Below, piece after piece: positions 1 through 18,390 of a stretch of DNA of 64,000 nt. The stretch lies in NCBI GenBank assembly GCA_944368975.1, contig CALVXI010000001.1:117365-181364 (forward strand). The letters run 5' to 3'. The notes below the pieces were generated by a model that was not told the origin of the DNA, did not search any database, and worked only from the letters and a program-made list of their open reading frames with translations. The number at the start of each line of letters is the position of its first letter. Position 1 is the first letter of the stretch. The translations under genes were made by a program, and so were the position numbers. Origin of the DNA: an uncultured Bacilli bacterium (GTDB lineage: Bacteria; Bacillota_I; Bacilli_A; RFN20; CAG-826).

Positions 1-948
1 TTCTATGTTATGTATTATCGTGATGATATAGTGAGTCAATATGGTTTTGATTTACCTGATACTTGGCAAGATGTAATTGAGATTTTACCTGAACTTCAAA
101 GAAATGGTTTTAATTATTACATTCCATTATCAACATCAACTGCAAGTAAATCCATTATGACTACTGCCCCATTTATTTATCAATATGGTGGTAATTTATT
201 TAGTGATGATGGAACTCATACAACAATCGATGAAGAAAATAGTTTAAATGCTATTAAATTAATGACTGAACTTTATACTCTTTATGGATTAGAAGATCAA
301 GTTAGTAATTTCTTTAATTCATTTAGAAATGGTAGTTTACCAATCGGTGTTTCGACTTTCGACACTTATGTTAGACTTACGATTGCTGCTCCTGAAATTA
401 GTGGAAAATGGAAAATTGCTTTACCTCCAGGAGTTAAAAATAGCGACGGAGTCGTTGAAAGATGGCAAACAGGTAGTGCCCAATCAATGTGTTTAATTGA
501 TCAAAACGAAGAAGTAAATAATGCTGGTTGGGAATTACTTAAATGGTGGACTTCAGCTGATGTTCAAACTGAGTTTAGTAATCGTTTAACTCTTCTTTAT
601 GGTAAAGGTTATATTTGGAATAGTGCTAATTTAGAAGCATTTAATAATTCAATGGTCTTTACTACTGAAGAAAAGAATGTCATTTTAGGCGAATGGGAGT
701 GGATGAGAGAAATTCCACGTGTTCCTGGATGGTATATGCTTGAAAGAGAATTATCTAATGCTTGGAATGATATTGTTCTTAATGGACAAAATACACGTGC
801 TGTTATTGAAGATGCAGTAACAGTTGTTAATAACGAACTTGAAAGAAAATTGATTGAGTTTGGTTATTTAGATGATGAAGGAAATATTATTACCCCATAT
901 AAAGTAACTACACTTGAATCAATTGAAGCTTTAAAAGAAGGTAAATAA
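1..948 (+). CDS. Sugar ABC transporter extracellular solute-binding protein, C-terminal ~315 aa (5' end outside the window)
   Basis: Frame 1 is open from base 1 (FYVMYYRDD...). The soluble W/Y/N-rich sequence is typical of family-1 sugar-binding proteins. Stop TAA at 946-948 lies 2 nt before the first permease gene. Confidence 0.7.
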
Positions 949-950
949 TT

Positions 951-1955
951 ATGGAAACTACGAATGTTAATGAAACAATTCCACAAAGCAAAAAAGATGC
1001 TGAAAAACGTAGTAAATTAGACTTTTTAAAGCGTTTTAAAAGAAATAATGAGAATAATAATCATATTGGTGGAGCTAAAAGTGCTATTAGCTCTACCATC
1101 TTGATTTTACCTTATATTTTAAGTTTCTTTACCTTTATTGTTTTACCAGTTATTTTAGCTATAATTCTTTCTTTTACAAACTTTAATGCGATGAATTTTC
1201 CAGAATTTGTCGGGTTAACTAACTATATAAACTTATTTACAAATGATGATGTTTTTATGCAAAAAATCATCCCAAATACCATTAAATTTTCATTAATTTG
1301 TGGCCCAGTTGGTTATTTTTTAAGTTTCTTCTTAGCTTGGTTACTTGCTCAAATTCCAAAAGTTCCTCGTACAATATTAGCTCTTATTATATACTCACCT
1401 AGTTTAACAGCTGGTGTTGCTATGCAAGTTGTTTGGATTGCAATATTTAGTGGTGATGCTAATGGTTATTTAAATGCTATTTTACTTGATATGGGTATTA
1501 TTAATGAAGCGATTCAATGGCTTCAAAGTGAAGAATACTTAATGACCATTATGATTATTGTAACTATATGGTCAAGTATGGGTGTTGGATTTTTAGCAAT
1601 GCTTTCTGGTATTTTAAATATCGATAGTGAATTATATGAAGCAGCTTATGTTGATGGACTTAAAAATAGATTCCAAGAAGTAGCTTATGTTACTTTACCA
1701 AGTATGAAGCCACAGTTACTTTTTGGTGCAGTTATGGCGGTTGTTAATACTTTCCAAGCAGGTTCTATTGGTGTTCAACTTTCAGGAAGTAATCCTACAC
1801 CAAATTATGCTGGAAGTTTAATTATTAACCATATTGAAGATTATGGTTATATCCGTTATGAAATGGGATATGCTAGTGCAATTAGCGTCGTACTTTTAAT
1901 CTTTATTTACGTCGTTAGTATTATTATCCGCAAGATTTTGCAAACAAAGGAGTAG
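951..1955 (+). CDS. Sugar ABC transporter permease (MalF/UgpA/LplB type)
   Basis: 334 aa with about 6 hydrophobic helices. EAA-loop-like segment [33 protein letters not shown] lies upstream of the ATG, and the gene is tightly packed behind the SBP gene. Confidence 0.85.
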
Positions 1956-1959
1956 GAAA

Positions 1960-2829
1960 ATGGCTAGTTTTCAAGGTAAAAAGATTAACCCTAAAAAGTT
2001 TCATCCAAGTCAAATTAAGTTTTATATTTTCTTAATTCCTTTTGCAATCTTTATGGCAATCCCAATTGTCTATATGTTTACAACAGCTTTTAAGCCTCAA
2101 GAGGAGTTATTTAAATTCCCTCCATCAATTTTAGTTTATAACCCAACGATGGATAATTTTAAAAGCTTATTTGATTTATTTGAAACAAGTAGCGTTCCTG
2201 CTAGTAGATACTTATTTAACTCAATTTTAGTTACTTTATTAACTGTTGTTATTTCCGTTATTTTAAGTGTTAGTGCAGGTTATGTTTTAAGTAAGAAGCA
2301 TTTTAAAGGTCAAAAATTATTATTTGAAATTAATACTTTAGCCTTAATGTTTGTTCCTATTGCAGTTACTATTCCTCGCTTTATTATTATTGTTAATTTA
2401 GGATTAATTGATAAATTTATTTCGAATATTTTACCAATTATTGCAATGCCTATTGGTTTATTCTTAGTTAAACAATTTATTGATCAAATTCCTGATGCCG
2501 TAATAGAAGCTGCAAGAATTGATGGAGCTGGAGAATTTACTATTTTATTTAGAGTAATTATTCCAATGGTTAAACCAGCTTTAGCAACAATTGCAATTTT
2601 AAGTTTCCAAAGTGCTTGGGGAGCAACTGAAGCTAGTGTTTATTTCTTAAATGATGAGTCTTTAAAAACATTTGCTTATTATATTACAACTTTTGCTAGT
2701 GGTACTAATGCAGCAACTCAAGGAGTAAGTGCTGCTAGTGCTTTAATTATGTTTGTTCCTAATTTGATTATCTTTATTATTATGCAATCAAATGTTATGG
2801 ATACAATGGCTTATTCAGGTATTAAGTAA
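1960..2829 (+). CDS. Sugar ABC transporter permease (MalG/UgpE/LplC type)
   Basis: 289 aa with about 6 TM helices. EAA loop IEAARIDGAGEFTILFRVIIPMVKPAL. AAGGAG RBS just upstream of the ATG at 1960. Confidence 0.85.
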   Translation: MASFQGKKINPKKFHPSQIKFYIFLIPFAIFMAIPIVYMFTTAFKPQEELFKFPPSILVYNPTMDNFKSLFDLFETSSVPASRYLFNSILVTLLTVVISVILSVSAGYVLSKKHFKGQKLLFEINTLALMFVPIAVTIPRFIIIVNLGLIDKFISNILPIIAMPIGLFLVKQFIDQIPDAVIEAARIDGAGEFTILFRVIIPMVKPALATIAILSFQSAWGATEASVYFLNDESLKTFAYYITTFASGTNAATQGVSAASALIMFVPNLIIFIIMQSNVMDTMAYSGIK

Positions 2830-2830
2830 T

Positions 2831-4888
2831 ATGAAAAAGAGATATTATGTTTTAATATTTTCAATATTTTTAATGATCTTAACTTTCTCTTTTTCAGCAA
2901 GTATTGCTTATGCCTTACCTTATGAAACAGAGACTAGTGGACCTAATGGAGAACTTGTTCCAACTCAACAAGTTTATGAACCATCTAGAAAAATAGTTAT
3001 CCCTTATAATATGCCAGTAAATGAAGACGAATCTAGCACCTTTAATGCTCCTGAAGACATGTTCTATGATGAAGAAACTAATTCTATCTTTATTGCAGAT
3101 ACTGGTAATAAAAGAGTAGTTAGATTAAATTATGATGGAACTGATGCTGATTTTATATATTATGGAAAAGAAGATGAAGCATTAATTGATCCTCGTGGAG
3201 TTAGTTGTAATGATGATTATTTAGTTGTCGCTGATCGTCAACTTGAGAAAGTTATAGTTTATGATAAAGAAACTCTAGCTTATGTTGATGAAATCACTAG
3301 ACCTGATAGCACATTAATTGGTGCAACTTCGACATTTGTTCCAACTAAAGTATGTGTTGATAATCGTGGCAATCTATATATAGTTAGTGAAGGTAACACT
3401 AAAGGCGTTATGCAACTTAATTTAGAAGGCGAATTTGCTGGTTATATTGGTGCAAATGAAACTCCATCTAGCTTCTTAAGTTGGATTCAAGATTTATTTG
3501 GAATTAATAATGATGATGGTTTATTAGCTCAAGGACAAAGTGTTAGTAATATTGCTCTTGATTCTAATGGGCTAGTTTATACAGTTACTAACCAAAGCGC
3601 AACTGCTGCAGTTAAAAAGCTTAATACTACTGGTGTTAGTATTATGTCTCCTTCAATGAACTTTGCTGAAACTACTCAAGTTTGTATTGATAGTAGTGGA
3701 AATATTTATAGCGTTCAAAATGATGGCTATATAACTATTTTTGATAGCTATGGAAGTTTATTATTTAGATTTGGTGGTGTTAATAATGAAGAAGTTTTAG
3801 GTGCTTTAAAAAATCCTATTGCTGTTAATGTTACATCAAATCATGAACTTTTAGTTCTAGATCGTGAACAAAATATGGTCATCTTATATACTCCAACTCA
3901 TTTTGCCAATTTAGTTTTTGATGCAGTTGATTATTATAAAGATGGTTTATATTTAGAAGGGGAAGATGCTTGGTTAGAAGTTTTAAAATATAACAATAAA
4001 TTTATTTTAGCTTATAAGGCACTTGCTAGAGCTAATATGAAAAAAGGTAATTATGATCTTGCTTTAGAACAATTTAAACTTGCTGAAGATAAACAAGGTT
4101 ATAGTGAAGCTTATTGGCAAATTAGAGATACTTGGCTTAGAAGTAACCTTATTTGGATTATTGTTCCAATTTTAGTTTTATGTATTGGAATATATGTAGT
4201 TAAATTAGTAGACCGTAAAAAACCAATGGTTTTTGCTTCTATTAAAAGTGGTTTTAATAGAGCAAACCAAACACATACTTTAGGTGATTTTACTTATATT
4301 TTCCATTATATGAGAAGGCCTCGTGATGCGACTTATGAGATGAAATATAAAGGTAAAACAAGTGTTATTGGTGCTACTATTTTATATTTATTCTTTGTTG
4401 TCATTCAAATTTTACAAGTATATTTAAAAGGTTATTTATTTAATAATACGAACGTATATGATTCTAATGCTTTAGAGATCATCTTACTATCAACTTTACC
4501 TTTAATTTTACTTGTTATATGCAATTATTTTGTTAGTAATGTTACAGATGGTGAAGGTAAGTTTAAACAAGTTTATATTGGAATGATTTATTCTTTAAGT
4601 CCTTACTTAGTATTGTCTATTCCAATTTTCTTAATTTCTAATGTTTTAACTTATAATGAACAAGTTATTTATGATGTATTAATTTGGTTTACCTATATTT
4701 GGTCAGGAATTAATATCTTTTTAACAATAATGGAACTTCATGATTTCACATTCTGGAAAGCAGTTAAAAATATATTACTTACGATTGTGTGCTTTATTTT
4801 AGTTATAGCATTTGCCTTTATTCTTTATATGTTAGCTTATCAACTTGTAGGCTACATTATTAGTGTATGTCAGGAGTTAGCCTTATGA
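2831..4888 (+). CDS. Exported NHL-repeat beta-propeller / TPR-like / Yip1-like multi-pass membrane fusion protein, function unknown
   Basis: Start moved to ATG 2831 (MKKRYYVLIFSIFLMILTFSFSASIAYA signal peptide). Six NHL-like blades, e.g. SIFIADTGNKRVVRLNYDG, YLVVADRQLEKVIVYD, NLYIVSEGNTKGVMQLNLEG, ELLVLDREQNMVILY. A TPR-like stretch (NMKKGNYDLALEQFKLAEDK) is followed by about 6 TM helices. Confidence 0.6.
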   Translation: MKKRYYVLIFSIFLMILTFSFSASIAYALPYETETSGPNGELVPTQQVYEPSRKIVIPYNMPVNEDESSTFNAPEDMFYDEETNSIFIADTGNKRVVRLNYDGTDADFIYYGKEDEALIDPRGVSCNDDYLVVADRQLEKVIVYDKETLAYVDEITRPDSTLIGATSTFVPTKVCVDNRGNLYIVSEGNTKGVMQLNLEGEFAGYIGANETPSSFLSWIQDLFGINNDDGLLAQGQSVSNIALDSNGLVYTVTNQSATAAVKKLNTTGVSIMSPSMNFAETTQVCIDSSGNIYSVQNDGYITIFDSYGSLLFRFGGVNNEEVLGALKNPIAVNVTSNHELLVLDREQNMVILYTPTHFANLVFDAVDYYKDGLYLEGEDAWLEVLKYNNKFILAYKALARANMKKGNYDLALEQFKLAEDKQGYSEAYWQIRDTWLRSNLIWIIVPILVLCIGIYVVKLVDRKKPMVFASIKSGFNRANQTHTLGDFTYIFHYMRRPRDATYEMKYKGKTSVIGATILYLFFVVIQILQVYLKGYLFNNTNVYDSNALEIILLSTLPLILLVICNYFVSNVTDGEGKFKQVYIGMIYSLSPYLVLSIPIFLISNVLTYNEQVIYDVLIWFTYIWSGINIFLTIMELHDFTFWKAVKNILLTIVCFILVIAFAFILYMLAYQLVGYIISVCQELAL

Positions 4889-7053
4889 AATTTCTTACAA
4901 AATTAATTATAACAATCGTTGGATTAACTTCCGTCAGTGTCCCAATTGCAATGGGTGGAACTTATAAACTTGAAAGTAATCAAAATAGTGAAACATTAAA
5001 TGAAGAAACTAATGAAGTTTATACAGTAACTAAAGGTGATACAACTTTAAAAGTAAATAAAGACACTTTATATTTTGAAGTAACTAAAGGTAATTCTACT
5101 TGGAATAGTGGTAAAGTTCTTGAAACTGATGAAGATGTCACAAATAGTCGTAGAGCTTTTATTGAATCGCCTTTAACAGTTTACTTTTTAACTTCTAATG
5201 GTGGAGAAAGTAGTTTTAGTATTTTTGATAGTCGTCATGAAGATACAACTCGTGTCACATTCCATGAAGAAAGTGAAGGTTTTAGTGCTGATTTAAGAAT
5301 TAGAGATGGTAATAATGCTAATTTAAGTTTAGAGATTAATTTAACTCTTAATGTAAAAATCACTGATGATGGCTTAAATATTTATATTACTGATCTAGAA
5401 GAAAATCTAGAAGCAACTAATAGATTATCAAGACTTGTTATTTATCCTGGATTTGATGCAAGTTATGGCTTAGTTGATGGATATGCTTTAATCCCTGATG
5501 GAAGTGGAGCAATCATTAATTATAATGAACCTACTAATGCTCGTAGTGCTCTTTCTTTAACAACTTATGATAGTGATATCGGAGTAAGAAATAATGGAAG
5601 AACATCAACTACTAGTAATGTTTTAACTTTACCTATGTATGCTGTTAATAATTTAAATAGCAGTTATATGGTAACTATTGAAAGTGGTAGTGAATATAGT
5701 TCATTAAATAGTAAGGTTGCTACGATGAGTGATAACTATAACTTAAATTATTTTAGTTTTACTTATCGAGAAATTTTCTACCGTTATTTTGGTATAAGTG
5801 ATTCTACTCGTCGACCAGAACCACAAGAAAACGCTAATCAATTTTTACCAAATTTAACTTATCATCTTTATGATGATAAGTTGACTTATAGTGAATTTGC
5901 TAAAGAATATCAAGACTATTTATTAACTAATAATTTACTTAATAAAGCTAGTGAACTTGAAAGTAGTTTAAGACTTGAATTTTTAATGAGTGAATCTAAA
6001 CCTAGCATGTTTGGAAGAGAAGTTATTGCTATGACTGATACTAACTTTGTTAAAAAAGTTTGCGAAGAACTTAAAGATGAAGTTAATGTTGATGTTAGTT
6101 TACTTGGCGCAAGTAAAGGTGGTTATACTAATTCTTATCCTAATAATTTCCCTCTTGAAAAGAAAACTGGAAGTGAAGGAGATTATAAAGATTTAATTAG
6201 TTATTTAAATAGTTTTGGAATAGAAACTAATTTTATAGTTGATTATATCCGTGCTTTTAGTGATAGCTCAATTAGTGATAAAGATCTTGCGATGAATATG
6301 TCAGAAAAATATATTGAAAGTAACGATATTCATCCTGGAAGTGAATTAATCTTTAATCATCTAACATTAAATAAAACTAAAGATAAGATTAATGGAGATT
6401 TAGGTTTAATTAATGAACTTAATACTAGTGGATTAGATTTTACGTCAATTGGTAATACTTTATATTCAAGTTATCATAATCAAGTATTTTCTAGAGCTGA
6501 AGCTATTAAAGCTTATCAAAATATATTAGGCTCTTTAGATTTAAATGTTAATTTAAGAAAACCTAATTTATACATGTATAATTACTTTAATGATTATTTA
6601 GAAACGCCAATTAGTAATAGTGGATTTTTAATTGAAACAAGTAGTATCCCATTTATATCAATGGTTTTAAGTGGATATAAAAATATGTATAGTAGTGCTT
6701 TAAACTTAAATTATTTAGGAACTAATCAAATCTTAAATTTAATCGATTATAACGTTAATCCAACATATTTATTGACTAAAGAAAGTGCTATTGAATTATT
6801 CCAAACAAGTAGTGAATATATTTTCTCTAGTATGTATAGTGATTGGAAAGAAGAAATTATTAATTCTATTACTTTAGTTAATGATATTTTAAAAGAAGTT
6901 AGTGGTGCTAATTTTATAAATAGAGAAGAAATTAGTAATAATGTTTATAAGAATACCTATAGTAATAATAAAGAAATCATCGTTAATTATTCTGATAATG
7001 ATTTTACTTATAACGGTATTACTATTGAGTCTAGTAGTGCGGAGGTATTTTAA
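4885..7053 (+). CDS. Large (~722 aa) membrane-anchored or secreted protein of unknown function (possibly DUF5696-like)
   Basis: ATG 4885 overlaps the upstream TGA (ATGA), with AGGAG at 4872-4876. N-terminal hydrophobic anchor KLIITIVGLTSVSVPIAMGG. The rest is a soluble S/T/N-rich sequence with no catalytic motif I recognise. The DUF5696 resemblance is from memory only. Confidence 0.45.
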   Translation: MKFLTKLIITIVGLTSVSVPIAMGGTYKLESNQNSETLNEETNEVYTVTKGDTTLKVNKDTLYFEVTKGNSTWNSGKVLETDEDVTNSRRAFIESPLTVYFLTSNGGESSFSIFDSRHEDTTRVTFHEESEGFSADLRIRDGNNANLSLEINLTLNVKITDDGLNIYITDLEENLEATNRLSRLVIYPGFDASYGLVDGYALIPDGSGAIINYNEPTNARSALSLTTYDSDIGVRNNGRTSTTSNVLTLPMYAVNNLNSSYMVTIESGSEYSSLNSKVATMSDNYNLNYFSFTYREIFYRYFGISDSTRRPEPQENANQFLPNLTYHLYDDKLTYSEFAKEYQDYLLTNNLLNKASELESSLRLEFLMSESKPSMFGREVIAMTDTNFVKKVCEELKDEVNVDVSLLGASKGGYTNSYPNNFPLEKKTGSEGDYKDLISYLNSFGIETNFIVDYIRAFSDSSISDKDLAMNMSEKYIESNDIHPGSELIFNHLTLNKTKDKINGDLGLINELNTSGLDFTSIGNTLYSSYHNQVFSRAEAIKAYQNILGSLDLNVNLRKPNLYMYNYFNDYLETPISNSGFLIETSSIPFISMVLSGYKNMYSSALNLNYLGTNQILNLIDYNVNPTYLLTKESAIELFQTSSEYIFSSMYSDWKEEIINSITLVNDILKEVSGANFINREEISNNVYKNTYSNNKEIIVNYSDNDFTYNGITIESSSAEVF

Positions 7054-7054
7054 G

Positions 7055-8557
7055 ATGATTAAATTTAAAGATATATATTTTCAATATCAATCTAATTATC
7101 CTAAAACTTTAATTAATTTTATTTTAAAGAAAGATAAGAATCATTCTTTAAATAAAAAGAGTATCAATGATAATTTAAAAAAGATTATAAAGTTTGAAGA
7201 TACTTCCTATTTAAATGATATTTTCACTAATGAAAATAAAGCTCATATGAAAGAGATTTTAAAAGAAGAAATTGAAAGAATTTCTTTTGATTATAATAAA
7301 ATCCTTTTAGAACTCGACTCTTTTTATGAAAAATCATTTAATAATGCTTCATTTAATCAAAAAGAAATTACTAAAGAATTAAATAAATTTGATAAAGAAT
7401 TTCAAAAATATAATTTACCATTTATTTACTATAATATTTCTTTTATCTTAGATTTTAAAAGAACTATCAATAATGAACTTAAGTTATTTTATGAAAAAGA
7501 GAAGTCTGGAGAATATGTTGATTTAAATGAAGTTAATAAAAGAATGAATAAATATTTTATTAACTTAAAAGAAACTATTAAAGGCTTAGAGGAAAGCTTA
7601 AGTATTGATATTGATACTTATTTAAATAATTTAATTACTCGAATTAATGAAGAATATAAAATTATTTTTGAAAATAAAGATAACTTTAAAATTACAATTC
7701 CTAATTGGACTAAAGGATTATTATTTTGCTTACCTTGGATCATTGGTTTTTGTATTTTCACTGTTTATCCTTTAATTCAAACATTCGTTTTCTCATTTAA
7801 TTATGTTGTTCCAACAAGTGATGGCTTTAGAATGGATGGAGTAGGTTTTACTAATTATATAAATCTATTTACTAAAGACACTGATTTTATAAATGCAATC
7901 GGTGATTATTTAGTTGAAATGATTATCTACGTCCCTGTTATTACAGTTGTTAGTTTATTACTTGCTTTATTATTAAATACTAAAGTTAAAGGAACAGGAT
8001 TTTTTAGAACAATTTTCTTCTTACCTGTAATTATTACTAGTGGTCCAGTTTTACAAATCTTAATGGAACAAGGTGTTACTTCTATTCCTGGACTTAGTGA
8101 AATTATTAATTTAGAAGAAATTAGTCAAGGTTTACCAAGATTCCTTCAAACAGCATTAGATATTATAACTAATGAATTTATCGTTATTTTATGGTTCTGT
8201 GGTATTCAAATTTTAGTCTTTATGACTGGTTTACAAAAGATCGATAAAGGAGTTTATGAAGCTGCGAATATTGATGGAGCTGGTAAGTGGGAGAAGTTCT
8301 GGAAAGTTACTTTACCTGCTATAAATCCAACAATTGTTATTAATGTTGTTTTCACGGTTGTCATGCAATCAATCTTTGCTTTAAATCCAATCATTTTAAA
8401 GATTCAACAAGATATGAATGATACTAGTGGTGAAAGAGGTTATGGTTATTCAAGTGCGATGGCCTTTACTTACTTCTTAATCATGATTATCGTGTTAGTT
8501 ATTTTTGTTCTTATCTTTAAGAGTAAGAACAAAAAAGTTAAGAAAGTGGGGGCATAG
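7055..8557 (+). CDS. Sugar ABC permease (MalF/UgpA type) with ~245-aa N-terminal soluble K/N/E-rich extension
   Basis: Start at ATG 7055 (GGAGG at 7038-7042), 1 nt after the upstream stop. The first TM helix appears only near aa 250 (LLFCLPWIIGFCIFTVYPLI). EAA loop VYEAANIDGAGKWEKFWKVTLPAINP. Confidence 0.8.
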   Translation: MIKFKDIYFQYQSNYPKTLINFILKKDKNHSLNKKSINDNLKKIIKFEDTSYLNDIFTNENKAHMKEILKEEIERISFDYNKILLELDSFYEKSFNNASFNQKEITKELNKFDKEFQKYNLPFIYYNISFILDFKRTINNELKLFYEKEKSGEYVDLNEVNKRMNKYFINLKETIKGLEESLSIDIDTYLNNLITRINEEYKIIFENKDNFKITIPNWTKGLLFCLPWIIGFCIFTVYPLIQTFVFSFNYVVPTSDGFRMDGVGFTNYINLFTKDTDFINAIGDYLVEMIIYVPVITVVSLLLALLLNTKVKGTGFFRTIFFLPVIITSGPVLQILMEQGVTSIPGLSEIINLEEISQGLPRFLQTALDIITNEFIVILWFCGIQILVFMTGLQKIDKGVYEAANIDGAGKWEKFWKVTLPAINPTIVINVVFTVVMQSIFALNPIILKIQQDMNDTSGERGYGYSSAMAFTYFLIMIIVLVIFVLIFKSKNKKVKKVGA

Positions 8558-8559
8558 TT

Positions 8560-10275
8560 ATGAAAAAGTTTTTTAATGATTTATTAAATAAAATTAAATA
8601 TGTCTTTACTCCTATTTCTAAAGAGACCAAAAAAGAAATAAAAGAAATTAGAATTAAAGAGAAAACTACTAAAAACCTTGCAAAAACCCGATTAAATTTA
8701 ATTATTAAAGAAATTAAAGAATCTAGTAAAGGTAATTTAGAAGCTTTAAAATTCGATATTAAAGGTTTTAAAAATGTCATTCATAACACGAAAGTTTCTA
8801 GTAATAATTTTTACTTTGAACACTTTATAAAAGAAGACTTTAATCGTTTAGGACTTAGTTCAAGTTTAGTAATATCTCATGATTCGAAAATTAATCTTAA
8901 AGAAGAATTAATTTCTAAGTTAAGTGAATTTAATAATAGTAATTTATCAAAATTTAAAGCTTATTTTGAAATGATTAAGATTAATAAATTAATTAATAAA
9001 TCTATAAATTATTTATTAGAAGATTATAAAACTAAGTCTAATTTCTTTATCATTAAAAATATCTTTAAAAAAGATGGATTAGAAGTTATTAAATCATACT
9101 TTAATGAAGTTAAAGAGTATTCTTTAACTTACATAAAGAATGATAATTTTAAATTAGATAAGGATTTAGAATTAACAATAACTAACATTAATAATTTAAT
9201 TAATAATGCATCAATTAAATTAAAAGAATATCCATATCACTTTAAAGAAACAAAAGTTTATCTTTCTTTAGTTAATTCTTTTAATAAAAAGTTTAAAAAA
9301 CTTAAACCTATTGTTACTAAAGAAGTTACTAGATTTTATGATCTATTTAAAAAAGAAAACTTTAACCGTGAAACTATTAAAACTTATTTATTTGGTAGTG
9401 AAGAACGTCGAGGAATTTTAACAAATATTGTTGTTTATGCTTTATTAATTTTATTCGGTTTTGTTTATCTTTATCCAATGCTTTATATGCTTTCTTATAG
9501 TTTTATGAGTAGTAGTGATTTAGTTAACCCTAATGTTACTTATATTCCTACTCATTTAGAAGGACAAAACTATATCGATGCATTTACAGTATTAAATTAT
9601 TGGTCAACATTAGGAGAAAGTTTACTTGTTAGTATTCTTCCAGCAATTTGTCAAACAGTATGTTGTTCACTTGTTGCTTATGGACTAGCTAGATATGAAT
9701 TTAAAGGAAAGAAAATTTTATTTGGTTTAATTATTTTCACCTTTTTAATTCCATCTTGTTTAACAATGTTACCAACTATTAGTTTATATGCCTCAATGGG
9801 CATAACTGGCAATGTTTTAAGTTATATCTTACCAGCTTTATTTGGTCAAGGGCTTAAAAGTGCCGTCTTTATCTTAATTTTTTATCAATACTTTAAAGGT
9901 ATTCCTCAATCAATTACTGAAGCTGCTGAAATTGATGGTGCAAATACATTTGTCGTATTTTTAAGAATAGCAATTCCAAGTGCTAAAAGTGGAATTCTTT
10001 TATCAATCTTACTTAGTGTAGTTTGGTATTATAACGAAACTGTTTTAGCTAGTGCTTTCTTTGGAAGTGAGATTTCTACTTTACCATTAGCCTTAGAAAA
10101 CTTTAAATCCTCATTTGATAATATTTATCAAGATGCTGCTAATGGAAAAAGTATTAATGAAGCTATTTATATGGCTGGTACAATGCTTAACATTTTACCA
10201 TTACTTATTCTTTACTTCTTTACACAAAAATACTTCGTTCAAGGTGTTGATAAAGCAGGAATTACTGGAGAATAA
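8560..10275 (+). CDS. Sugar ABC permease (MalG/UgpE type) with ~285-aa N-terminal soluble K/N-rich extension
   Basis: 571 aa. The first TM helix is near aa 287 (ILTNIVVYALLILFGFVYLYP). EAA loop ITEAAEIDGANTFVVFLRIAIPSAK. The N-terminal third has no hydrophobic segment. Confidence 0.8.
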   Translation: MKKFFNDLLNKIKYVFTPISKETKKEIKEIRIKEKTTKNLAKTRLNLIIKEIKESSKGNLEALKFDIKGFKNVIHNTKVSSNNFYFEHFIKEDFNRLGLSSSLVISHDSKINLKEELISKLSEFNNSNLSKFKAYFEMIKINKLINKSINYLLEDYKTKSNFFIIKNIFKKDGLEVIKSYFNEVKEYSLTYIKNDNFKLDKDLELTITNINNLINNASIKLKEYPYHFKETKVYLSLVNSFNKKFKKLKPIVTKEVTRFYDLFKKENFNRETIKTYLFGSEERRGILTNIVVYALLILFGFVYLYPMLYMLSYSFMSSSDLVNPNVTYIPTHLEGQNYIDAFTVLNYWSTLGESLLVSILPAICQTVCCSLVAYGLARYEFKGKKILFGLIIFTFLIPSCLTMLPTISLYASMGITGNVLSYILPALFGQGLKSAVFILIFYQYFKGIPQSITEAAEIDGANTFVVFLRIAIPSAKSGILLSILLSVVWYYNETVLASAFFGSEISTLPLALENFKSSFDNIYQDAANGKSINEAIYMAGTMLNILPLLILYFFTQKYFVQGVDKAGITGE

Positions 10276-10277
10276 AA

Positions 10278-11615
10278 ATGAAGAAAAATGTTTGTTTATT
10301 ATTAGGAACTCTAAGTTTATTAACTATTTCATCATGTGATCCATCAAAAGGTAGCATTAATGAAAATTTAATAAAGGATGAGATTGAAAAAACTTATAAC
10401 TATTTTATGGCTACTACTAATTTAAAAGAGAATAGTAATGGCTATGGTTTAGTTCAAGACCGTTTTACAAATAAAAATAACTCATCAATTGCTGCTACTG
10501 GTTTTGCTTTAGCTGCTTATCCAATTTATGTTGAAGAAGGACTTATGACAAAAGAAGAAGCAAATGAAATTGTTACTAAGTCGCTTGAAACAATTTTACG
10601 AATTCAAAATGATGAAAGAGTAAGTTACGAAGGCTGTATTTCTCATTTTGTTAACATGAATACAGGCTTAAGAGTTGGTGGAAGCGAAATTTCAACTATC
10701 GATACAGCAATTTTAGTTAGTGGAGCTATTGCTAGTGGTGCTTATTTTGAAGGTGAAGCTGAAACTCTTGCTAATACTATTTGGAGTAATGTTGATTATA
10801 ATGCTTTCTCAATTGAAAGAAATGGTAAGAAATATATTTCAATGGGAACTGATAATCCTGCAAGCTTTGAAACAATTAAACAACTTGGACCTTGGGATTA
10901 TTATGCTGAACAATTAATGATTTATATTCTTGGAGCTGGAAATCCTAATGAAGAACATCGTATTAGTAAAGAATATTATGAAGATATAACTAAAAACATT
11001 GGTGAATTTGAAGGACATAGTCATATTTATTCTTGGTATGGTTCAATTTTTACTTATCAATTCTCACATGCTTTCTATGACTTCCATACATATGAAGATA
11101 GTGATGGAATTAATTGGCACGAAAATAGTGTTGAAGCAACTTTAACAAGTAAAGCATATAGTGAGTATTATGCTAAAGCTTATCGCACTTTCGAAGAAGG
11201 TGGTTGGGGATTAACAGCATGTGATACTCCTACTGGATATAGTGGATTACTTGGTACCCCACCAAGAGGATGGAATGATGTTGGAAGTAACTATCTAGAT
11301 ATAGAAGGAACAGTTGCTCCATGTGGTGCAATTGGTAGTTTCATTTTTACTCCAGAAGAATCTTATGAAGCTTTAGAGTTATTTAGAAGTTACAAAGCAT
11401 TAAATCATCCAGATTTTGGTTTATATGATTCATATAATTTAGATTATCGTGGAATTGAATGGTATTGCCGTGATTTTGTTGGTATTGATAAAGGTATATC
11501 AGTCTTAATGATGGGTAATTATCTTCATGATAATTTAATACAAGAACTCGTTATGTCTAATCCATACGTAATTGAGGGATTTACAAATAATGGATTTAGT
11601 AAAGTGAGTGAATAA
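10278..11615 (+). CDS. Lipoprotein, putative (alpha/alpha)6 glycoside hydrolase of the glucoamylase-like / GH144-like (DUF3131) type
   Basis: Lipobox LLTISSC. Segments SSIAATGFALAAY, DYYAEQLMIYILGAGNPNEEHRI and GGWGLTACDTPTGYSG resemble, from memory, the 'putative glucoamylase' domain of endo-beta-1,2-glucanases. Not verified by search. Confidence 0.5.
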   Translation: MKKNVCLLLGTLSLLTISSCDPSKGSINENLIKDEIEKTYNYFMATTNLKENSNGYGLVQDRFTNKNNSSIAATGFALAAYPIYVEEGLMTKEEANEIVTKSLETILRIQNDERVSYEGCISHFVNMNTGLRVGGSEISTIDTAILVSGAIASGAYFEGEAETLANTIWSNVDYNAFSIERNGKKYISMGTDNPASFETIKQLGPWDYYAEQLMIYILGAGNPNEEHRISKEYYEDITKNIGEFEGHSHIYSWYGSIFTYQFSHAFYDFHTYEDSDGINWHENSVEATLTSKAYSEYYAKAYRTFEEGGWGLTACDTPTGYSGLLGTPPRGWNDVGSNYLDIEGTVAPCGAIGSFIFTPEESYEALELFRSYKALNHPDFGLYDSYNLDYRGIEWYCRDFVGIDKGISVLMMGNYLHDNLIQELVMSNPYVIEGFTNNGFSKVSE

Positions 11616-11617
11616 AC

Positions 11618-12814
11618 ATGGAATTAAACAAAGTGAATGCATATAAAGAATTAGAGTTATCAGTAAAATTCTTTTTAGACACATTTTCAAAAGAAGATAT
11701 AAGTTATGGTCTAGTGCCTGATACATATTTAACGACTAAATCAAACATTTCTTCGATAGCGGGAACTGGTTATTTATTTAGTGCTTTAGTGATTGGAAGT
11801 GAAATAAATTTAATCAGTAAAAATAAAGCTAAAGAGATCGCTATTAAAGCTCTTAAAACTATTAAAAATTTAAAAAGAGTTAAAGGATGGTATTATCATT
11901 TTTACGATATAAATAATGGTCAAAATACTCTTCATAGCGAAGTTAGCAATATTGATTCATGTTTATTATTTTTAGGAATTCTTACTTGTGGAGAATATTT
12001 TAAAGGAGAAGTTGAAAAACTTGCAAAAGAGATATTTTTCCTTGCAGATTTCAACTATTTTTTAGATAAATCTACAAATATTATGAATATGGCAATCGAT
12101 TATAAAGGGAATATGTATGCTAAATGGGATTATTTAGCTGAACAACTTATGATCTATATTTTAGGTGTTAATACTTTAAATAAAGATTACCGTATTCCAA
12201 AAGAAACTTTCTATAGCTTTAAGAAAAAATTAATGAGTTATGAAGAACTTAATTTCTATGCTTCTTGGAATGGTTCTTTATTTACTTATCAATATACTCA
12301 AACTTATGTTGATTTTAGAAATACAATTGATAATGAAGGTATTAATTGGTTTAATAATTCTAAATTAGCAACTATAGCAAGTTATCGTTATAGTAAAAGT
12401 TTAAAAGATAAATATCGTTCAATTAATGAATTAAGTTGGGGATTAACTGCTTCAGCTAGTAAAAAGGGCTATAGTGGAAATTATTCAAGTATTCCACTAG
12501 GAGATAAAGTAAATACTGTTGATGGAACAATGGCTCCTACTGGAGCAATTAGTTCAATAGTATTTCTTGAAAAAGAATCTCTTGATGCTATTAATCATTA
12601 TTATTCATTACCTTATTTAGTTGGAAAATATGGATTATATGATGCTTATAATGATGATTTAAATTTTGTTGCAGATTACTATATCTCAATTGATAAAGGA
12701 AATGCGATGGTTATGTTAAGTAATTACTTTAATGAAACAATCTGGAAATATTTCAATCAAATTGATTTTATTAAAGAAGCTAAGGAAATAATTGGAATTC
12801 GAAAGGAGAATTAG
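11618..12814 (+). CDS. Cytoplasmic paralogue of the preceding glucoamylase-like / GH144-like protein
   Basis: No signal peptide. Shares blocks with the 10278-11615 product: SSIAGTGYLFSAL, DYLAEQLMIYILGVN, LFTYQY, GINWF/GINWH, SWGLTASASKKGYSG, APTGAISS/APCGAIGS, GLYDAYN/GLYDSYN. Confidence 0.5.
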   Translation: MELNKVNAYKELELSVKFFLDTFSKEDISYGLVPDTYLTTKSNISSIAGTGYLFSALVIGSEINLISKNKAKEIAIKALKTIKNLKRVKGWYYHFYDINNGQNTLHSEVSNIDSCLLFLGILTCGEYFKGEVEKLAKEIFFLADFNYFLDKSTNIMNMAIDYKGNMYAKWDYLAEQLMIYILGVNTLNKDYRIPKETFYSFKKKLMSYEELNFYASWNGSLFTYQYTQTYVDFRNTIDNEGINWFNNSKLATIASYRYSKSLKDKYRSINELSWGLTASASKKGYSGNYSSIPLGDKVNTVDGTMAPTGAISSIVFLEKESLDAINHYYSLPYLVGKYGLYDAYNDDLNFVADYYISIDKGNAMVMLSNYFNETIWKYFNQIDFIKEAKEIIGIRKEN

Positions 12815-12816
12815 TT

Positions 12817-13938
12817 ATGGGGAGAATTTCATTACAACATATTTATAAAATTTACCCAGGTGCCACTGAACCTGCGGTAAAAGATTTTACTTTGGAAATT
12901 CACGATAAGGAATTCGTAGTTTTCGTTGGTCCTTCTGGATGTGGTAAGTCTACTACATTAAGAATGATTGCAGGACTTGAAGAAATCTCTAAAGGTGATC
13001 TTTATATCGATGATCGTAAAGTCAATAAAGTTGAACCTAAAGATCGTGATATCGCAATGGTTTTCCAAAATTATGCACTTTATCCATATATGACAGTATT
13101 TCAAAATATGTCATTTGGACTTCGTTTAAGAAAAGTTCCTAAAAAGGAAATTGAACAAAAAGTTCTTAAAGCTGCAAAAATTTTAGGAATTGAAGAATAT
13201 CTTGACCGTAAACCTAAAGCTCTTAGTGGTGGTCAAAGACAAAGAGTTGCTTTAGGTAGAGCTATCGTTCGTGAACCAAAAGTTTTCTTACTTGACGAAC
13301 CTTTAAGTAACCTTGATGCTAAGATGCGTGCTCAAATGAGAACTGAAATCATTAAGCTTCATAACGAATTACAAACAACATTCGTCTATGTTACTCACGA
13401 TCAAACAGAAGCTATGACAATGGGTACAAGAATCGTCGTTATGAAAGATGGTGTTATTCAACAAGTTGATACACCAGATAACTTATATGATTATCCAACT
13501 AATAAATTCGTTGCTGGTTTTATTGGAACACCACAAATGAACTTTATCGATGTAACTTTAATTAAAGAAAATGAAAATACTTATGCTACATTTGGTAAAA
13601 ATAAAGTTAAATTAGATGAAGAAACAGTTAAGAGAATTAAGATTAGTGATTATAACAATCATCAATTTGTCTTAGGTATTAGGCCTGAAGATATTTATCT
13701 TGAAGATGAAAAAGCAACAAGAGAAAATGGTTTAGTTGAAGCAAAAGTTAAAGTCTTGGAAAAACTTGGAAATGAAATACTAGTTTACACAAATTGCAGT
13801 GGTAAAGATGGTGAACTTGTATTTAGAAGTAAACCAAGAACAAATATTTATGAAGATGATGTCATTTCATTAAGATTTGACACCAAACAAATACATTTAT
13901 TTGATTTTAATACTGAAGAAACAATTTTAACTAGATAG
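12817..13938 (+). CDS. msmX: Multiple-sugar ABC transporter ATP-binding protein (MsmX/MalK type)
   Basis: Walker A GPSGCGKST, signature LSGGQRQRVALGRA, Walker B VFLLDEPLSNLD, H-loop YVTHDQ. C-terminal TOBE-like domain ends ISLRFDTKQIHLFD. AAGGAG RBS. Confidence 0.9.
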   Translation: MGRISLQHIYKIYPGATEPAVKDFTLEIHDKEFVVFVGPSGCGKSTTLRMIAGLEEISKGDLYIDDRKVNKVEPKDRDIAMVFQNYALYPYMTVFQNMSFGLRLRKVPKKEIEQKVLKAAKILGIEEYLDRKPKALSGGQRQRVALGRAIVREPKVFLLDEPLSNLDAKMRAQMRTEIIKLHNELQTTFVYVTHDQTEAMTMGTRIVVMKDGVIQQVDTPDNLYDYPTNKFVAGFIGTPQMNFIDVTLIKENENTYATFGKNKVKLDEETVKRIKISDYNNHQFVLGIRPEDIYLEDEKATRENGLVEAKVKVLEKLGNEILVYTNCSGKDGELVFRSKPRTNIYEDDVISLRFDTKQIHLFDFNTEETILTR

Positions 13939-13948
13939 GGAGGGTTTT

Positions 13949-16342
13949 ATGAAAAAACGTAGTAGTTTATTATTGTTAAGTGTCATCGGTGTATCCATGC
14001 TTTTAGCAGGATGTAATCCTGGTGGCGGTGAAGGTGGAGATGGTGGTAATAAAGAACCAGGCGACACCTATAGTTTAATGAAATTCTGGGCAGGAAATGC
14101 CTCAGAAGAAATTTATTCTGTTGAAGAAAATGAAACTTCAACCGTTATTACTTATACAGATGCAGTTAGTGAAGGAAATGGCGGCTGGGAATTCATTGCT
14201 AGATCATTTGCATATGATACTCTTTATATTGACTATTTCGATAAATATGAAAAATTAACTTTTACTGGTAACCTAGAAACTACAAGTGGTACTAATGAAG
14301 TTATGATTAAGTTCGAAGGTGCTGGTTCTGGTAATTATGAAAAGAGATTTACTTTCGAAGAAGAAACTAGAACATATGAACTTCCATTAAACTTTATTAG
14401 TGATTGGTCACAAGTTTCTCAAATTACCTTATTTGTTAATAGAGGTGCTAATAGTAAAGAAAATGGAAGTGGTGTCATGACATTTACTGATATTAGCCTA
14501 TCAACCGAACCTGTTAATCCTGAAAATAATATTGCTCCTGATCAAGAAGATAAACCTCAAGAAGCTAATATTTATGCTGGTGAAAAAGATAAGTTTAATG
14601 TTATGAAAAGTTGGGGCTATGACAATACTGGAACTATTAAAACAACCGAAAATAGTGATGGAACATTTAAATTTGATTATGATAAAGATGCTTCACCACA
14701 AACATATGCTTATGCTAGTGCAAAAGTTGAAGGCGATTTAAGTATATCAGGATTTAAGAGACTCCATTTTGCTATTAATGGTACTGCTGGTCAACAATTA
14801 ATGGTTAAATTCCAAACCCATGACAATGCAAAAGCTAAAGAATTAACTATTGAATTAACTGGTGAAGATCAAACTGTCGATATTGATATTACTCAAATCA
14901 TTACCGCAACTTATGAAGCTGACGGAGTCACATATACTTCATTTATTGCAGGTATATTCCCACTTCCAGGTGCTACTAGTGGAAAAGGTAGTGTCACTTT
15001 AAAAGAATGTTATATGGATACAACTGAAGCAGTTATAATCGAAACACCTGTTAATACTCCTGAAGGTGATTACTTATATCTTACAAAACCTTATAAAAAT
15101 GATAGCATCTATGACTATTCTCTTGAAGGTAATAAGATGACAATCAATTATGAATATCCTGAAACAGCTACATTACCAACATGGGCTTCACTTATGTTTG
15201 ATATTGATGGTGAAAATTTAACACAATTTACAAAATTAACTGGTACAATTACTTCAACTGTTGATGTCCAAGTACTTTTAAAGAGCTATGATAATAACGA
15301 AAAAGGACAAACATTCATTGACTTAAAGGCTAATGAACAATATAAAGTTGATGTTGAAATTGATTCTAACATTATTAATAAGGATAAAGATTTTATCATT
15401 ATTATTGGAACTACTGAAACAAGTGCTAAAAAAGGTACTGTTGTATTTGAAAATTTACGTTATGAAAAAGATACTTCAATTCCTGTTATTTATGATAATG
15501 AAAGAGAAGGAGATGAACTTAAAATTACTAAATTTTCAGTAATCCCAGAACAATTTACTTTAACTAATGGTGAAAATTCTTTTGATGTTGACTATAAAAG
15601 AACTCAATTAGATTGGAATGGTTTAGAAGCAACAATTGGTGGTGAGAACTTAACTGAATTAAGAAAATTAACTGGTACTATTACAGCAACTGTTAATACG
15701 GATATAATTATTAAACAAACTGCTGAATCAGCACCTGCTAATGAAATTAAAAGAACATTAACTGCTAATACTCCACTTGTTCTTGATGAAGTGATTCCTG
15801 AAGAATTAATGGTTGAAGGTGCTAAGTTCATCATTATGATTGCTACACCTAATAATTCTGGTAGTGCTTTAGAAGGAAAAGTTACATTTACAAATTTAAA
15901 ATTTGTTAAATATGAAGAACCAGCTCCTGTAGTTGAAGAATTAGCAATTACTAGTTTTACTGATTATAGTGAAACAATCTATAGCTATACTTATACTGAA
16001 GGTTCTAAAGAATTAAAAATTGCCTTTGATAAAACAACCGATCCAACTGGATATCCAGGATTACAAGTTAAACTAAATGCAGAAAATTTAGTAGAATTTA
16101 AAAGAGTTACTGGAAAAGTAATTAGTGATGTTGATCAAAAAATTATCATTAAAAATTTGGGCTATGAAGAGCGTATAGATTTAAAAGCAGGAGTAGAAAC
16201 AGCAATTGATTTTGTTAGTCAAAAAGAGGACGTAAATGCAATGTTTGTTATTATGTTAGGTGTCCCTGAAGATCCTTATAAAGATGCTATTAAAGGTAAT
16301 GTAACATTTACTGACCTTAAAGTTACAAAAGTTAGTGCATAA
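13949..16342 (+). CDS. 797-aa surface lipoprotein with five tandem beta-sandwich-like (CBM-like) modules, putative glycan-capture protein
   Basis: Lipobox MLLAGC followed by a Gly-rich linker NPGGGEGGDGG. Five ~130-150-aa modules each end in G-x-V-T/V-F-x-[DN]-L: GVMTFTDISL, GSVTLKECYM, GTVVFENLRY, GKVTFTNLKF, GNVTFTDLKV. An ENL[TV].F.[KR][LV]TG motif recurs in modules 3-5. Confidence 0.6.
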   Translation: MKKRSSLLLLSVIGVSMLLAGCNPGGGEGGDGGNKEPGDTYSLMKFWAGNASEEIYSVEENETSTVITYTDAVSEGNGGWEFIARSFAYDTLYIDYFDKYEKLTFTGNLETTSGTNEVMIKFEGAGSGNYEKRFTFEEETRTYELPLNFISDWSQVSQITLFVNRGANSKENGSGVMTFTDISLSTEPVNPENNIAPDQEDKPQEANIYAGEKDKFNVMKSWGYDNTGTIKTTENSDGTFKFDYDKDASPQTYAYASAKVEGDLSISGFKRLHFAINGTAGQQLMVKFQTHDNAKAKELTIELTGEDQTVDIDITQIITATYEADGVTYTSFIAGIFPLPGATSGKGSVTLKECYMDTTEAVIIETPVNTPEGDYLYLTKPYKNDSIYDYSLEGNKMTINYEYPETATLPTWASLMFDIDGENLTQFTKLTGTITSTVDVQVLLKSYDNNEKGQTFIDLKANEQYKVDVEIDSNIINKDKDFIIIIGTTETSAKKGTVVFENLRYEKDTSIPVIYDNEREGDELKITKFSVIPEQFTLTNGENSFDVDYKRTQLDWNGLEATIGGENLTELRKLTGTITATVNTDIIIKQTAESAPANEIKRTLTANTPLVLDEVIPEELMVEGAKFIIMIATPNNSGSALEGKVTFTNLKFVKYEEPAPVVEELAITSFTDYSETIYSYTYTEGSKELKIAFDKTTDPTGYPGLQVKLNAENLVEFKRVTGKVISDVDQKIIIKNLGYEERIDLKAGVETAIDFVSQKEDVNAMFVIMLGVPEDPYKDAIKGNVTFTDLKVTKVSA

Positions 16343-16356
16343 TTAATTTAATCTTA

Positions 16357-16390
16357 ATCACAATGCTAAACTTCGGTTTAGCATTGTGAT
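16357..16390 (+). terminator. Strong hairpin at the operon end (15-bp perfect stem, UUCG loop)
   Basis: atcacaatgctaaac-ttcg-gtttagcattgtgat, 15 nt after the stop at 16342. It is followed by an A-rich rather than T-rich tract, so it may be a non-canonical terminator or an RNA-stabilising hairpin. Confidence 0.55.
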
Positions 16391-16449
16391 AACAAAAAAA
16401 TAAAAAAATATTCAAGAATAGAAGGGATTTAAATTAAAAATAGAAAGTT

Positions 16450-16470
16450 TTATTAACGATTTGTTAATAA
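16450..16470. promoter_or_regulatory. Inverted repeat (candidate operator) immediately upstream of the GH39-like gene
   Basis: TTATTAAC-gattt-GTTAATAA, perfect 8-bp arms, ending 15 nt before ATG 16486. No SD sequence is visible there. Confidence 0.3.
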
Positions 16471-16485
16471 ATAAGTTATTTATTT

Positions 16486-18030: not shown

Positions 18031-18066
18031 TATTTCAATTAATCCATCGTAATTTAATTTTGTTAG

Positions 18067-18140
18067 AAATAACCAGTTTTTACATTTTTCCCCTAACTTA
18101 ATACAAAAACCTGTAAAACACTGGTTATTTTTATTTTTCT
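18067..18140 (+). terminator. Putative terminator after the GH39-like gene (long-loop hairpin plus T-run)
   Basis: aaataaccagtttttaca ... tgtaaaacactggttattt forms an 18-bp stem with one bulge and a 27-nt loop, followed by ttttatttttc. Confidence 0.45.
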
Positions 18141-18390
18141 TTATTTATATACATAAATTTTTATTCACTGAAATTTACTAAATTTAATAAAATTTCAATA
18201 ATTTCATAATAGATTTTGCTTAATTCTATATTTAAAATTTGAAGTTATGAAAGAAGATTTATATTTAATAGATAAAAAATTCTAATACGTTTTGCTTTAA
18301 TTAATGATATTCATTTTTCAAGTAGCTTAGAAAGTATTACAAGTGATTATTATAAAAAAGCTTTAGCAGGATTAAATGAATATACAAATA

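Follow-up and report, generated by a model that had tools for sequence, protein, structure and literature searches.

Genes A and B, two overlapping genes in a 64,000-nucleotide stretch of DNA from an uncultured Bacilli bacterium (assembly GCA_944368975.1, contig CALVXI010000001.1, positions 117,365 to 181,364; hereafter the window), probably encode dedicated accessory subunits of a conserved twin CUT1 ATP-binding cassette (ABC) glycan importer in bacteria that have no outer membrane. We place the probability of this reading at about 0.6. Gene A (2831-4888) codes for a predicted membrane protein combining an NHL beta-propeller, TPR-like hairpins and a Yip1 domain, and gene B (4885-7053) for an anchored DUF5696 protein with a glycosidase-like fold. 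A first-pass annotation of the window had given these coordinates, the overlap of the two genes in an ATGA motif and the 722-amino acid anchored product of gene B, all of which were borne out by the open reading frames (ORFs) and by hydropathy. The ATG of gene A at 2831 lies one base past the TAA of the upstream permease gene, and its stop codon, TGA 4886-4888, overlaps the ATG of gene B (4885-4887) within ATGA 4885-4888, with an AGGAG 8 nucleotides upstream. Permease pairs flank the two genes at 951-2829 and 7055-10275, and Pfam recognises BPD_transp_1 on both sides, in agreement with the earlier placement of the genes between two ABC permease pairs.

A cassette of fixed order in five phyla

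When one genome from each GTDB species was scanned, at least 555 loci with DUF5696 relatives came up, of which the best 80 were kept and their ORFs searched with purpose-built profiles. In these best 80 loci, wherever the contig allows, the genes follow a fixed order on one strand: a long solute-binding protein (SBP, about 980 amino acids), permeases A1 and A2, gene A, gene B, and permeases B1 and B2. A Yip1-containing ORF lies directly 5' of the DUF5696 gene in 70 of the 71 genes with at least 2.3 kb upstream, and the distance from the stop of gene A to a possible start of gene B is between -20 and +26 nucleotides in 79/79 loci, with a possible overlap in 56. The idea that A and B are unrelated passengers between two transporters, with no co-occurrence across genomes, which the first-pass annotation had named as fatal to its own interpretation, is refuted by this survey: the pair is kept, its order is fixed in five phyla and its junction is close or overlapping throughout.

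The cassette is found in Bacillota, Mycoplasmatota, Chloroflexota, Thermotogota and Spirochaetota, with hosts such as Paenibacillus, Cohnella, Fictibacillus, Sutcliffiella, Alkalibacterium, Lachnospiraceae, Oscillospiraceae, Izemoplasmatales, Acholeplasmatales, Anaerolineae, Fervidobacterium and Treponema. The first-pass annotation had associated Yip1 and DUF5696 gene pairs with sugar ABC transporters of Paenibacillus and Clostridia; this association is real and stricter than had been stated. Even the most distant homologues of gene A (32-35% identity) and of gene B (23-25%) still lie within the cassette, and the closest match to gene B among genomes of GTDB species shares only 41% identity. 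For both proteins, full-length homologues reach E = 0 to 1e-100, which excludes chance ORFs.

Gene A: a propeller, TPR and Yip1 membrane protein

The product of gene A matches two Pfam families, NHL (PF01436; 26.2 bits against a gathering cut-off of 20) and Yip1 (PF04893; 35.7 bits against 28.6), the latter over residues 493-662 and model positions 3-171 of 173. NCBIfam holds no model for the product of gene A or of gene B. In the AlphaFold2 model of gene A (predicted local distance difference test, pLDDT, 83.7; 41-sequence alignment), 24 strands are arranged in six four-stranded blades over approximately residues 30-355. Next come four helices (357-417) that pair into two TPR-like hairpins, and then a helical membrane bundle. 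Foldseek matches to this model are six-bladed NHL propellers (TRIM71, Thin, PknD) with template-modelling scores (TM-scores) on target of 0.78-0.81, and phmmer against PDB sequences recovers the NHL domains of TRIM2/3/71, Thin and PknD down to E 1e-9. Since Foldseek returned propellers only, the Yip1 bundle is not informed by the fold search. TPR models of Pfam match only some of the homologues of gene A.

Hydropathy and charge place residues 26-438, which are acidic (60 D+E vs 30 K+R), outside the cell. They are followed by a transmembrane (TM) helix at 439-457, a K/R-rich cytoplasmic loop of 54 amino acids (458-511) and five further TM helices, so that the Yip1 part consists of a cytoplasmic N-terminal stretch and five hydrophobic segments, as expected for Yip1. 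The six NHL-like blades of the first-pass annotation were thus recovered, its TPR-like helix pair corresponds to the two predicted hairpins, and its Yip1-like domain of about six helices to one plus five TM helices.

Among 41 homologues, conservation is highest at the membrane-proximal end of the TPR region, AEDKQGYSEAYWQIR (418-432), and in a cytoplasmic DGEGK loop, CNYFVSNVTDGEGKFK (564-579). These two stretches may be contact surfaces, as the conservation pattern would predict. In four loci (L064, L069, L082 at 7927-9983 and L090 at 5361-7681) gene A is split just after the first TM helix into an NHL-TPR-TM1 protein of 479-594 amino acids and a stand-alone Yip1 protein of 204-229 amino acids with five TM helices, which argues that the two parts are cooperating modules.

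Gene B: a remote relative of GH129 and GH101 glycosidases

Gene B belongs to DUF5696 (PF18952; 394.5 bits against a cut-off of 25.6, E 1e-117, model positions 6-611 of 612), a family matched at E up to 1e-3 by 5,911 representatives of clusters formed at 50% identity. Its product carries one N-terminal hydrophobic segment (7-25), a feature shared by 175 of 181 full-length family members. The predicted structure (pLDDT 88.2; predicted TM-score, pTM, 0.88) has a disordered N-terminal region holding the hydrophobic segment, an N-terminal beta-sandwich (approximately 44-330), a (beta/alpha)8 barrel (approximately 361-672) and a C-terminal beta-sandwich (673-722). When compared with the PDB by Foldseek, the model retrieved DagB (ZGAL_3152, a GH129-like 3,6-anhydro-D-galactosidase, 5opq; E 2e-30, TM-scores 0.66/0.71), NagBb of glycoside hydrolase (GH) family 129 (5wzp; E 1e-26) and GH101 (E 1e-21), with GH36, GH97 and GH31 weaker. 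A search of PDB sequences with the DUF5696 profile found DagB and NagBb at E 8e-5 to 4e-4, and hhalign aligned the gene B family with a rebuilt DagB sequence at 93.6% probability across 585 columns. Two GH129-like proteins match both PF18952 and PF11308 among precomputed hits; the rebuilt DagB fragment, used as a query for GH129 relatives, returned only 6 proteins.

Phmmer with gene B gave no match in PDB sequences, GH129 being reached by profile search only. Neither gene B nor three of its relatives matched PF11308 (GH129, GHL1-GHL3) in Pfam even at E 10, and gene B matched no GH129 or GH101 model of Pfam up to that value. On profile alignment and predicted structure, gene B is remotely homologous to glycosidases of the GH129/GH101 fold; by family-level sequence criteria, it is not a member of GH129. 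The first-pass annotation had recognised no catalytic motif in this protein. That statement needs amending, as the protein has remote relatives with a characterised glycosidase fold; of the GH129 catalytic set it retains only a part.

Activity of DagB is abolished when any one of Asp202, Asp486, Glu517 and Glu531 is mutated; Asp202 is contributed by the N-domain of the other monomer, and Asp486 alone of the four is common to NagBb (PMC5698469). The D486N entry 8rzk confirmed where Asp486 lies. These residues were mapped by hhalign and HMMER alignments onto 120 DUF5696 proteins, with a register uncertain by about 3 residues. Asp202 adjoins D231 of gene B, which lies in an N-domain loop and is conserved in 93%. 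Asp486 (Asp435 of NagBb, the nucleophile after barrel strand 4) falls near positions 518/520, where an acid is present at either position in 78/120 proteins; D518 of gene B is three residues off the position that hhalign aligns to Asp486. Glu531 adjoins position 573, occupied by D/E in 78/120 and by Q/N in 33/120. Glu517, the second catalytic acid (Glu478 of NagBb), aligns to R558 in a conserved P560-N561 region devoid of acid, and E573 could serve as an alternative second acid.

The window protein has D231, D518 and E573, a combination found in only 59/120 relatives, so that catalysis by this particular protein is possible; loci flanked by GH16 mostly have T518/T520 and Q573. Universally conserved in DUF5696 are PDGSGA (204-209, N-domain), D231, P589-F590, N607 and D/E621; conserved polar residues follow most barrel strands. 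We dropped the candidate reading that gene B lacks the whole GH129 catalytic set: judged by the four essential residues of DagB, the set is partly kept and variable. Because the GH129-type acids vary among members, catalysis cannot be what unites the whole DUF5696 family, and sugar recognition is the safer common denominator.

As a separate observation, the DUF5696 proteins of L036 (Mariniplasma), L055 (Treponema) and L027 (Halanaerobiales) resemble the Lachnospiraceae type (T518, Q573), unlike those of their own phyla, which suggests that whole cassette subtypes have been transferred between phyla.

The transporter components

The first-pass annotation had spoken of LplABC-type transporters; the permeases give only weak NCBIfam matches, of the UgpA/UgpE, MalF/MalG and GlcT/GlcU kinds, and score as CUT1 permeases resembling UgpAE/MalFG; the SBP, two BPD_transp_1 permeases and the MalK/MsmX-type ATPase of a CUT1 importer are encoded together. 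The cassette as a whole comprises 7-8 genes, with two permease pairs and usually two SBPs. In 59 of 63 loci its small SBP, a lipoprotein, is encoded directly 5' of the long SBP; in L089 it comes after permease B2. In the long SBP, the N-terminal 550 or so amino acids contain two CBM35/CBM6-like carbohydrate-binding modules (CBMs) and a coiled coil ahead of the SBP_bac_1 domain. Full-length homologues begin with a signal or anchor, the L083 copy being at 5158-8118. The idea that gene B substitutes for a missing SBP of permease pair B was weakened by this second SBP, including the one located after B2 in L089.

The extensions of permeases B1 and B2 (7055-7730 and 8560-9415) precede the first TM helix and are rich in K, N, I and E, with a local GC of about 0.20. 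They are confined to the clade of the window (L001, partly L002-L005), most relatives being plain proteins of 285-330 amino acids.

Operon layout and likely substrate

The genes from position 10 to 16342, all twelve on the + strand, are separated by spacers of at most 10 nucleotides in the table-11 ORFs (Table 1), and a terminator scan saw no + strand terminator-like site in 1098-18390. The GC content is about 28%. A genetic code reading TGA as Trp was ruled out, as table 11 keeps all twelve ORFs open. In the 99%-identical relative L083, the upstream genes are those of a LacI regulator, a 248-amino acid protein of no assigned family, GH94, the small SBP (483 amino acids) and the long SBP (986 amino acids), and beyond them the locus matches the window.

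Table 1. Genes of the array and features of genes A and B, in window coordinates.
Feature	Position	Strand	Remark
Long SBP, C-terminal 312 amino acids, cut by window edge	10..948	+	986 amino acids in 99%-identical relative L083
Permease A1, BPD_transp_1, MalF/UgpA type	951..1955	+	
Permease A2, BPD_transp_1, MalG/UgpE type	1960..2829	+	
Gene A, NHL propeller + TPR + TM helix + Yip1 membrane protein, 685 amino acids	2831..4888	+	
Gene A residues 1-29, putative signal peptide or anchor: hydrophobic 7-25, then AYA	2831..2917	+	hydropathy
Gene A residues 30-356, predicted extracytoplasmic six-bladed NHL beta-propeller	2918..3898	+	AlphaFold2 model, Foldseek
Gene A residues 357-438, two TPR-like hairpins + membrane-proximal stretch AEDKQGYSEAYWQIR	3899..4144	+	
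Gene A residues 439-457, TM helix 1	4145..4201	+	hydropathy
Gene A residues 458-685, Yip1 domain: K/R-rich cytoplasmic loop + five TM helices	4202..4885	+	
A/B coupling junction: AGGAG 4872-4876 within gene A end; ATGA 4885-4888	4872..4888	+	
Gene B, DUF5696 protein, 722 amino acids, GH129/GH101-like fold	4885..7053	+	
Permease B1, BPD_transp_1, K/N-rich N-terminal extension of ~220 amino acids	7055..8557	+	
Permease B2, BPD_transp_1, K/N-rich N-terminal extension of ~285 amino acids	8560..10275	+	
PF10091 (GH144-like) protein with lipoprotein-type signal (…LLTISSC)	10278..11615	+	
PF10091 (GH144-like) protein without signal	11618..12814	+	
MsmX/MalK-type ABC ATPase	12817..13938	+	
797-amino acid lipoprotein, internal sequence repeats	13949..16342	+	last tightly packed gene of array

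Across loci, a PF10091 (GH144-like) gene lies directly 3' of the cassette in 16/47 and a GH16 gene in 13/47. SOGP-type GH94 (5 loci) and GH35-like (9-10 loci) genes also flank it, as do GH3, GH31, GH5, GH30, GH43/GH2/GH4 and GH20. The flanks hold catabolic GHs and LacI-type regulators, an AraC/response regulator being also encoded separately; no glycosyltransferases were seen in the flanks examined. GH144 enzymes are endo-beta-1,2-glucanases and GH94 enzymes are phosphorylases. As GH144-like and GH94 genes flank the cassette, the operon of the window most likely takes up and degrades beta-1,2-glucan, an assignment drawn from enzyme family membership only. The first GH144-like protein is probably an endo-glucanase acting outside the cell and the second probably cytoplasmic, because a lipoprotein-type signal is present in the former and absent from the latter.

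The 797-amino acid lipoprotein has no Pfam or NCBIfam match. Approximately five repeats can be recognised in it by eye, such as '…LTGTITSTVDVQVLLK…', '…LTGTITATVNTDIIIK…' and '…VTGKVISDVDQKIIIK…', and its homologues come after the cassette in L002 and L003. Farther downstream, 16486-36814 contains genes for GH39, a major facilitator superfamily transporter, GH77, a maltodextrin-type SBP with permeases, GH13 and a pullulanase. At 30235-32790 an 851-amino acid MalK-like ATPase is encoded, with ABC_tran and OB_MalK in its first 300 or so amino acids and no Pfam match in the remaining 550 or so. Judging from its gene content, the host is a strongly saccharolytic, low-GC bacterium.

Proposed mechanism and alternative explanations

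We propose that A and B are stoichiometric subunits of the importer, with distinct roles. The CBM-bearing SBP and the surface lipoprotein would capture the polymer, which the GH144-like lipoprotein enzyme would then cut. Protein B, probably dimeric like its relative DagB, would sit on the membrane surface and bind oligosaccharide there; in certain clades it might also trim the sugar. Protein A would be the scaffold holding B and the SBPs at both translocators: the propeller and TPR hairpins would serve as a platform on the outside, the Yip1 bundle would lie in the membrane, and the conserved cytoplasmic loop would contact the transporter. The MsmX-type ATPase would power the cassette, which in the window forms the core of one operon, surrounded by genes for LacI, GH94, the two GH144-like proteins, the ATPase and the surface lipoprotein. 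Such a scheme is in keeping with the 'glycan capture, processing or hand-over' device that had been suggested for the pair, and which fits the GH129/GH101-like fold of B, the CBM35-like modules of the SBP and the catabolic GHs of the flanks.

Several points weigh against a role of A and B as accessory subunits of the importer. The putative complex of A, B and transporter is proposed here from genes and predictions, and synteny among related genomes is partly inherited and not independent evidence. The GH129/GH101/GH36 fold class is known for alpha-glycosides, and the flanking enzymes here act on beta-glucans. The need for two permease pairs is left unexplained. The role of gene B is ambiguous, catalysis being perhaps restricted to certain clades: acids at 518/520 and at 573 each occur in no more than the 78 members counted above, none of the 120 proteins has an acid at the position of DagB Glu517, and no acid is conserved at 556-564. 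The only exception found to the synteny is a very diverged DUF5696 (about 20% identity) outside any ABC cassette (L081 10001-12247 and L088 6001-8250). There the genes for a response regulator, a HisKA sensor kinase and DUF5696 form an array, the last of them overlapping the 3' end of the kinase gene.

A more ambitious version, which we put forward tentatively and hold to be possible rather than probable, would unite the parts in one surface supercomplex, a 'utilisome' for cells that lack an outer membrane. The dimeric, GH129-like DUF5696 ectoprotein would be both a non-SBP receptor and a processor of the substrate, the propeller/TPR/Yip1 protein would clamp it over two ABC translocators, and the CBM-bearing SBP would pass chains straight into the channels; the same receptor module would have been reused as the ligand-sensing partner of a histidine kinase in the arrays of L081 and L088.

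Among competing explanations, gene B might be an active membrane-tethered retaining glycosidase, founding a new GH129-related family and trimming outside the cell, with A as its anchor or chaperone and the transporters independent of both. The modelled GH129/GH101 fold, the position of D231, D518 and E573 at or adjoining the essential DagB residues Asp202, Asp486 and Glu531, and the conserved polar residues after most barrel strands all speak for it. Yet 42/120 relatives have no acid at 518/520 and 42/120 none at 573, all three residues occur together in only 59/120, and the Glu517 counterpart is absent; moreover, the flanking enzymes vary by locus (GH144-like, GH16, GH20, GH43) whereas B is constant, and a free-standing enzyme needs neither a slot between permease pairs nor an overlap with A. 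We think this explanation unlikely. The first-pass annotation had stated that glycosidase homology of the 722-amino acid protein would count against its own interpretation if the NHL/Yip1 gene were not conserved beside it; the fold homology was indeed found, and the NHL/Yip1 gene is conserved beside it.

The same annotation had also considered a signalling module acting on the transporter. In a reading of this kind, the propeller and the GH-like domain would detect extracellular glycan and gate the transporters or signal to gene expression. NHL propellers are known as extracellular sensor domains, as in PknD, and the overlap of the diverged DUF5696 with a kinase gene points in this direction. 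However, A has no kinase, helix-turn-helix or other output domain, its cytoplasmic parts being the 54-amino acid loop, the largest, and short loops; the LacI and AraC/response regulators have genes of their own; and gene overlap amid structural genes suggests production in step with transporter subunits. We consider a sensing role improbable, and less likely than glycan capture, processing or hand-over. It is very doubtful that the cassette serves instead in export or remodelling of a cell-surface glycan. In favour of this, the cassette also occurs in wall-less Mycoplasmatota, which bear surface glycans, and some GH129-like and other TIM-barrel enzymes can transglycosylate. Nevertheless, BPD_transp_1 permeases with SBPs are importers, and the flanks are catabolic (GH94 phosphorylases, GH3, GH16, LacI repressors), with glycosyltransferases not among the genes seen there.

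Comparison with known systems

YknW, which belongs to the Yip1 family and modulates assembly of the YknXYZ ABC transporter (PMC4887032), is the one documented bacterial precedent for the Yip1 family. Like gene A, YknW of Bacillus subtilis and B. amyloliquefaciens is a polytopic protein encoded with an ABC transporter. YknWXYZ, however, is an exporter of the MacB type that includes a membrane fusion protein, unlike this importer cassette, and YknW has neither a propeller/TPR ectodomain nor a GH-like partner; the sequence likeness drawn on here is the shared Pfam family. The propeller of A finds a counterpart in PknD of Mycobacterium tuberculosis, also a six-bladed NHL propeller outside the cell that a TM helix tethers; the kinase in the cytoplasmic part of PknD has no counterpart in A, which carries a Yip1 bundle and lacks any output domain.

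DagB, NagBb and the GH101 endo-alpha-N-acetylgalactosaminidases share with B the succession of N-terminal beta-sandwich, TIM barrel and C-terminal beta-sandwich. With DagB and NagBb the sequence similarity is at profile level, D231 in the N-domain loop of B adjoining the essential Asp202 of DagB. B, for its part, has no PF11308 match, no Glu517 counterpart and a variable strand-4 acid; it is also membrane-anchored, locked in an ABC cassette and neighboured by enzymes for beta-glucans, not for alpha-linked sugars.

The usual picture of a Gram-positive sugar ABC importer is a single binding protein with two permeases and an ATPase. Canonical CUT1 systems (MalEFGK2, and the MsmX-powered systems of Bacillota) share with the cassette the SBP, two BPD_transp_1 permeases and the MalK/MsmX-type ATPase. 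In the cassette, however, the permease pair is doubled, the SBP usually so as well, and two additional conserved proteins are encoded between the permease pairs. The Sus-like 'utilisomes' of Bacteroidota (SusCD, surface glycan-binding proteins, glycosidase) perhaps follow the same capture-cut-import logic, in which the parts are encoded side by side and may come together at the cell surface. The likeness is by analogy only: the Sus proteins are unrelated, and they work at an outer membrane with TonB power. In the library searched, no publication was found on DUF5696/PF18952, nor a relevant one on Yip1 with ABC transporters, glycoside hydrolases or glucan, and the cassette goes unmentioned in a paper on new beta-1,2-glucanase families. 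The core is a CUT1 ABC importer, a known kind of system; its doubled translocator with two fixed extra proteins appears to be undescribed.

Significance

Beyond the parts of the familiar importer, the cassette contains another permease pair and two proteins not yet characterised, and its hosts span gut Lachnospiraceae, soil bacilli and wall-less Mycoplasmatota. Some carriers are in culture (Paenibacillus lactis, Cohnella hongkongensis, Sutcliffiella horikoshii, Alkalibacterium and Peloplasma aerotolerans), which puts the question within reach of direct tests. If the parts do form one machine, it would show how the capture, processing and import of polysaccharide fragments can be coupled in bacteria without an outer membrane. 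DUF5696 and the propeller-Yip1 proteins of bacteria would then gain their first assigned function, and the annotation of such loci in microbiome genomes would change.

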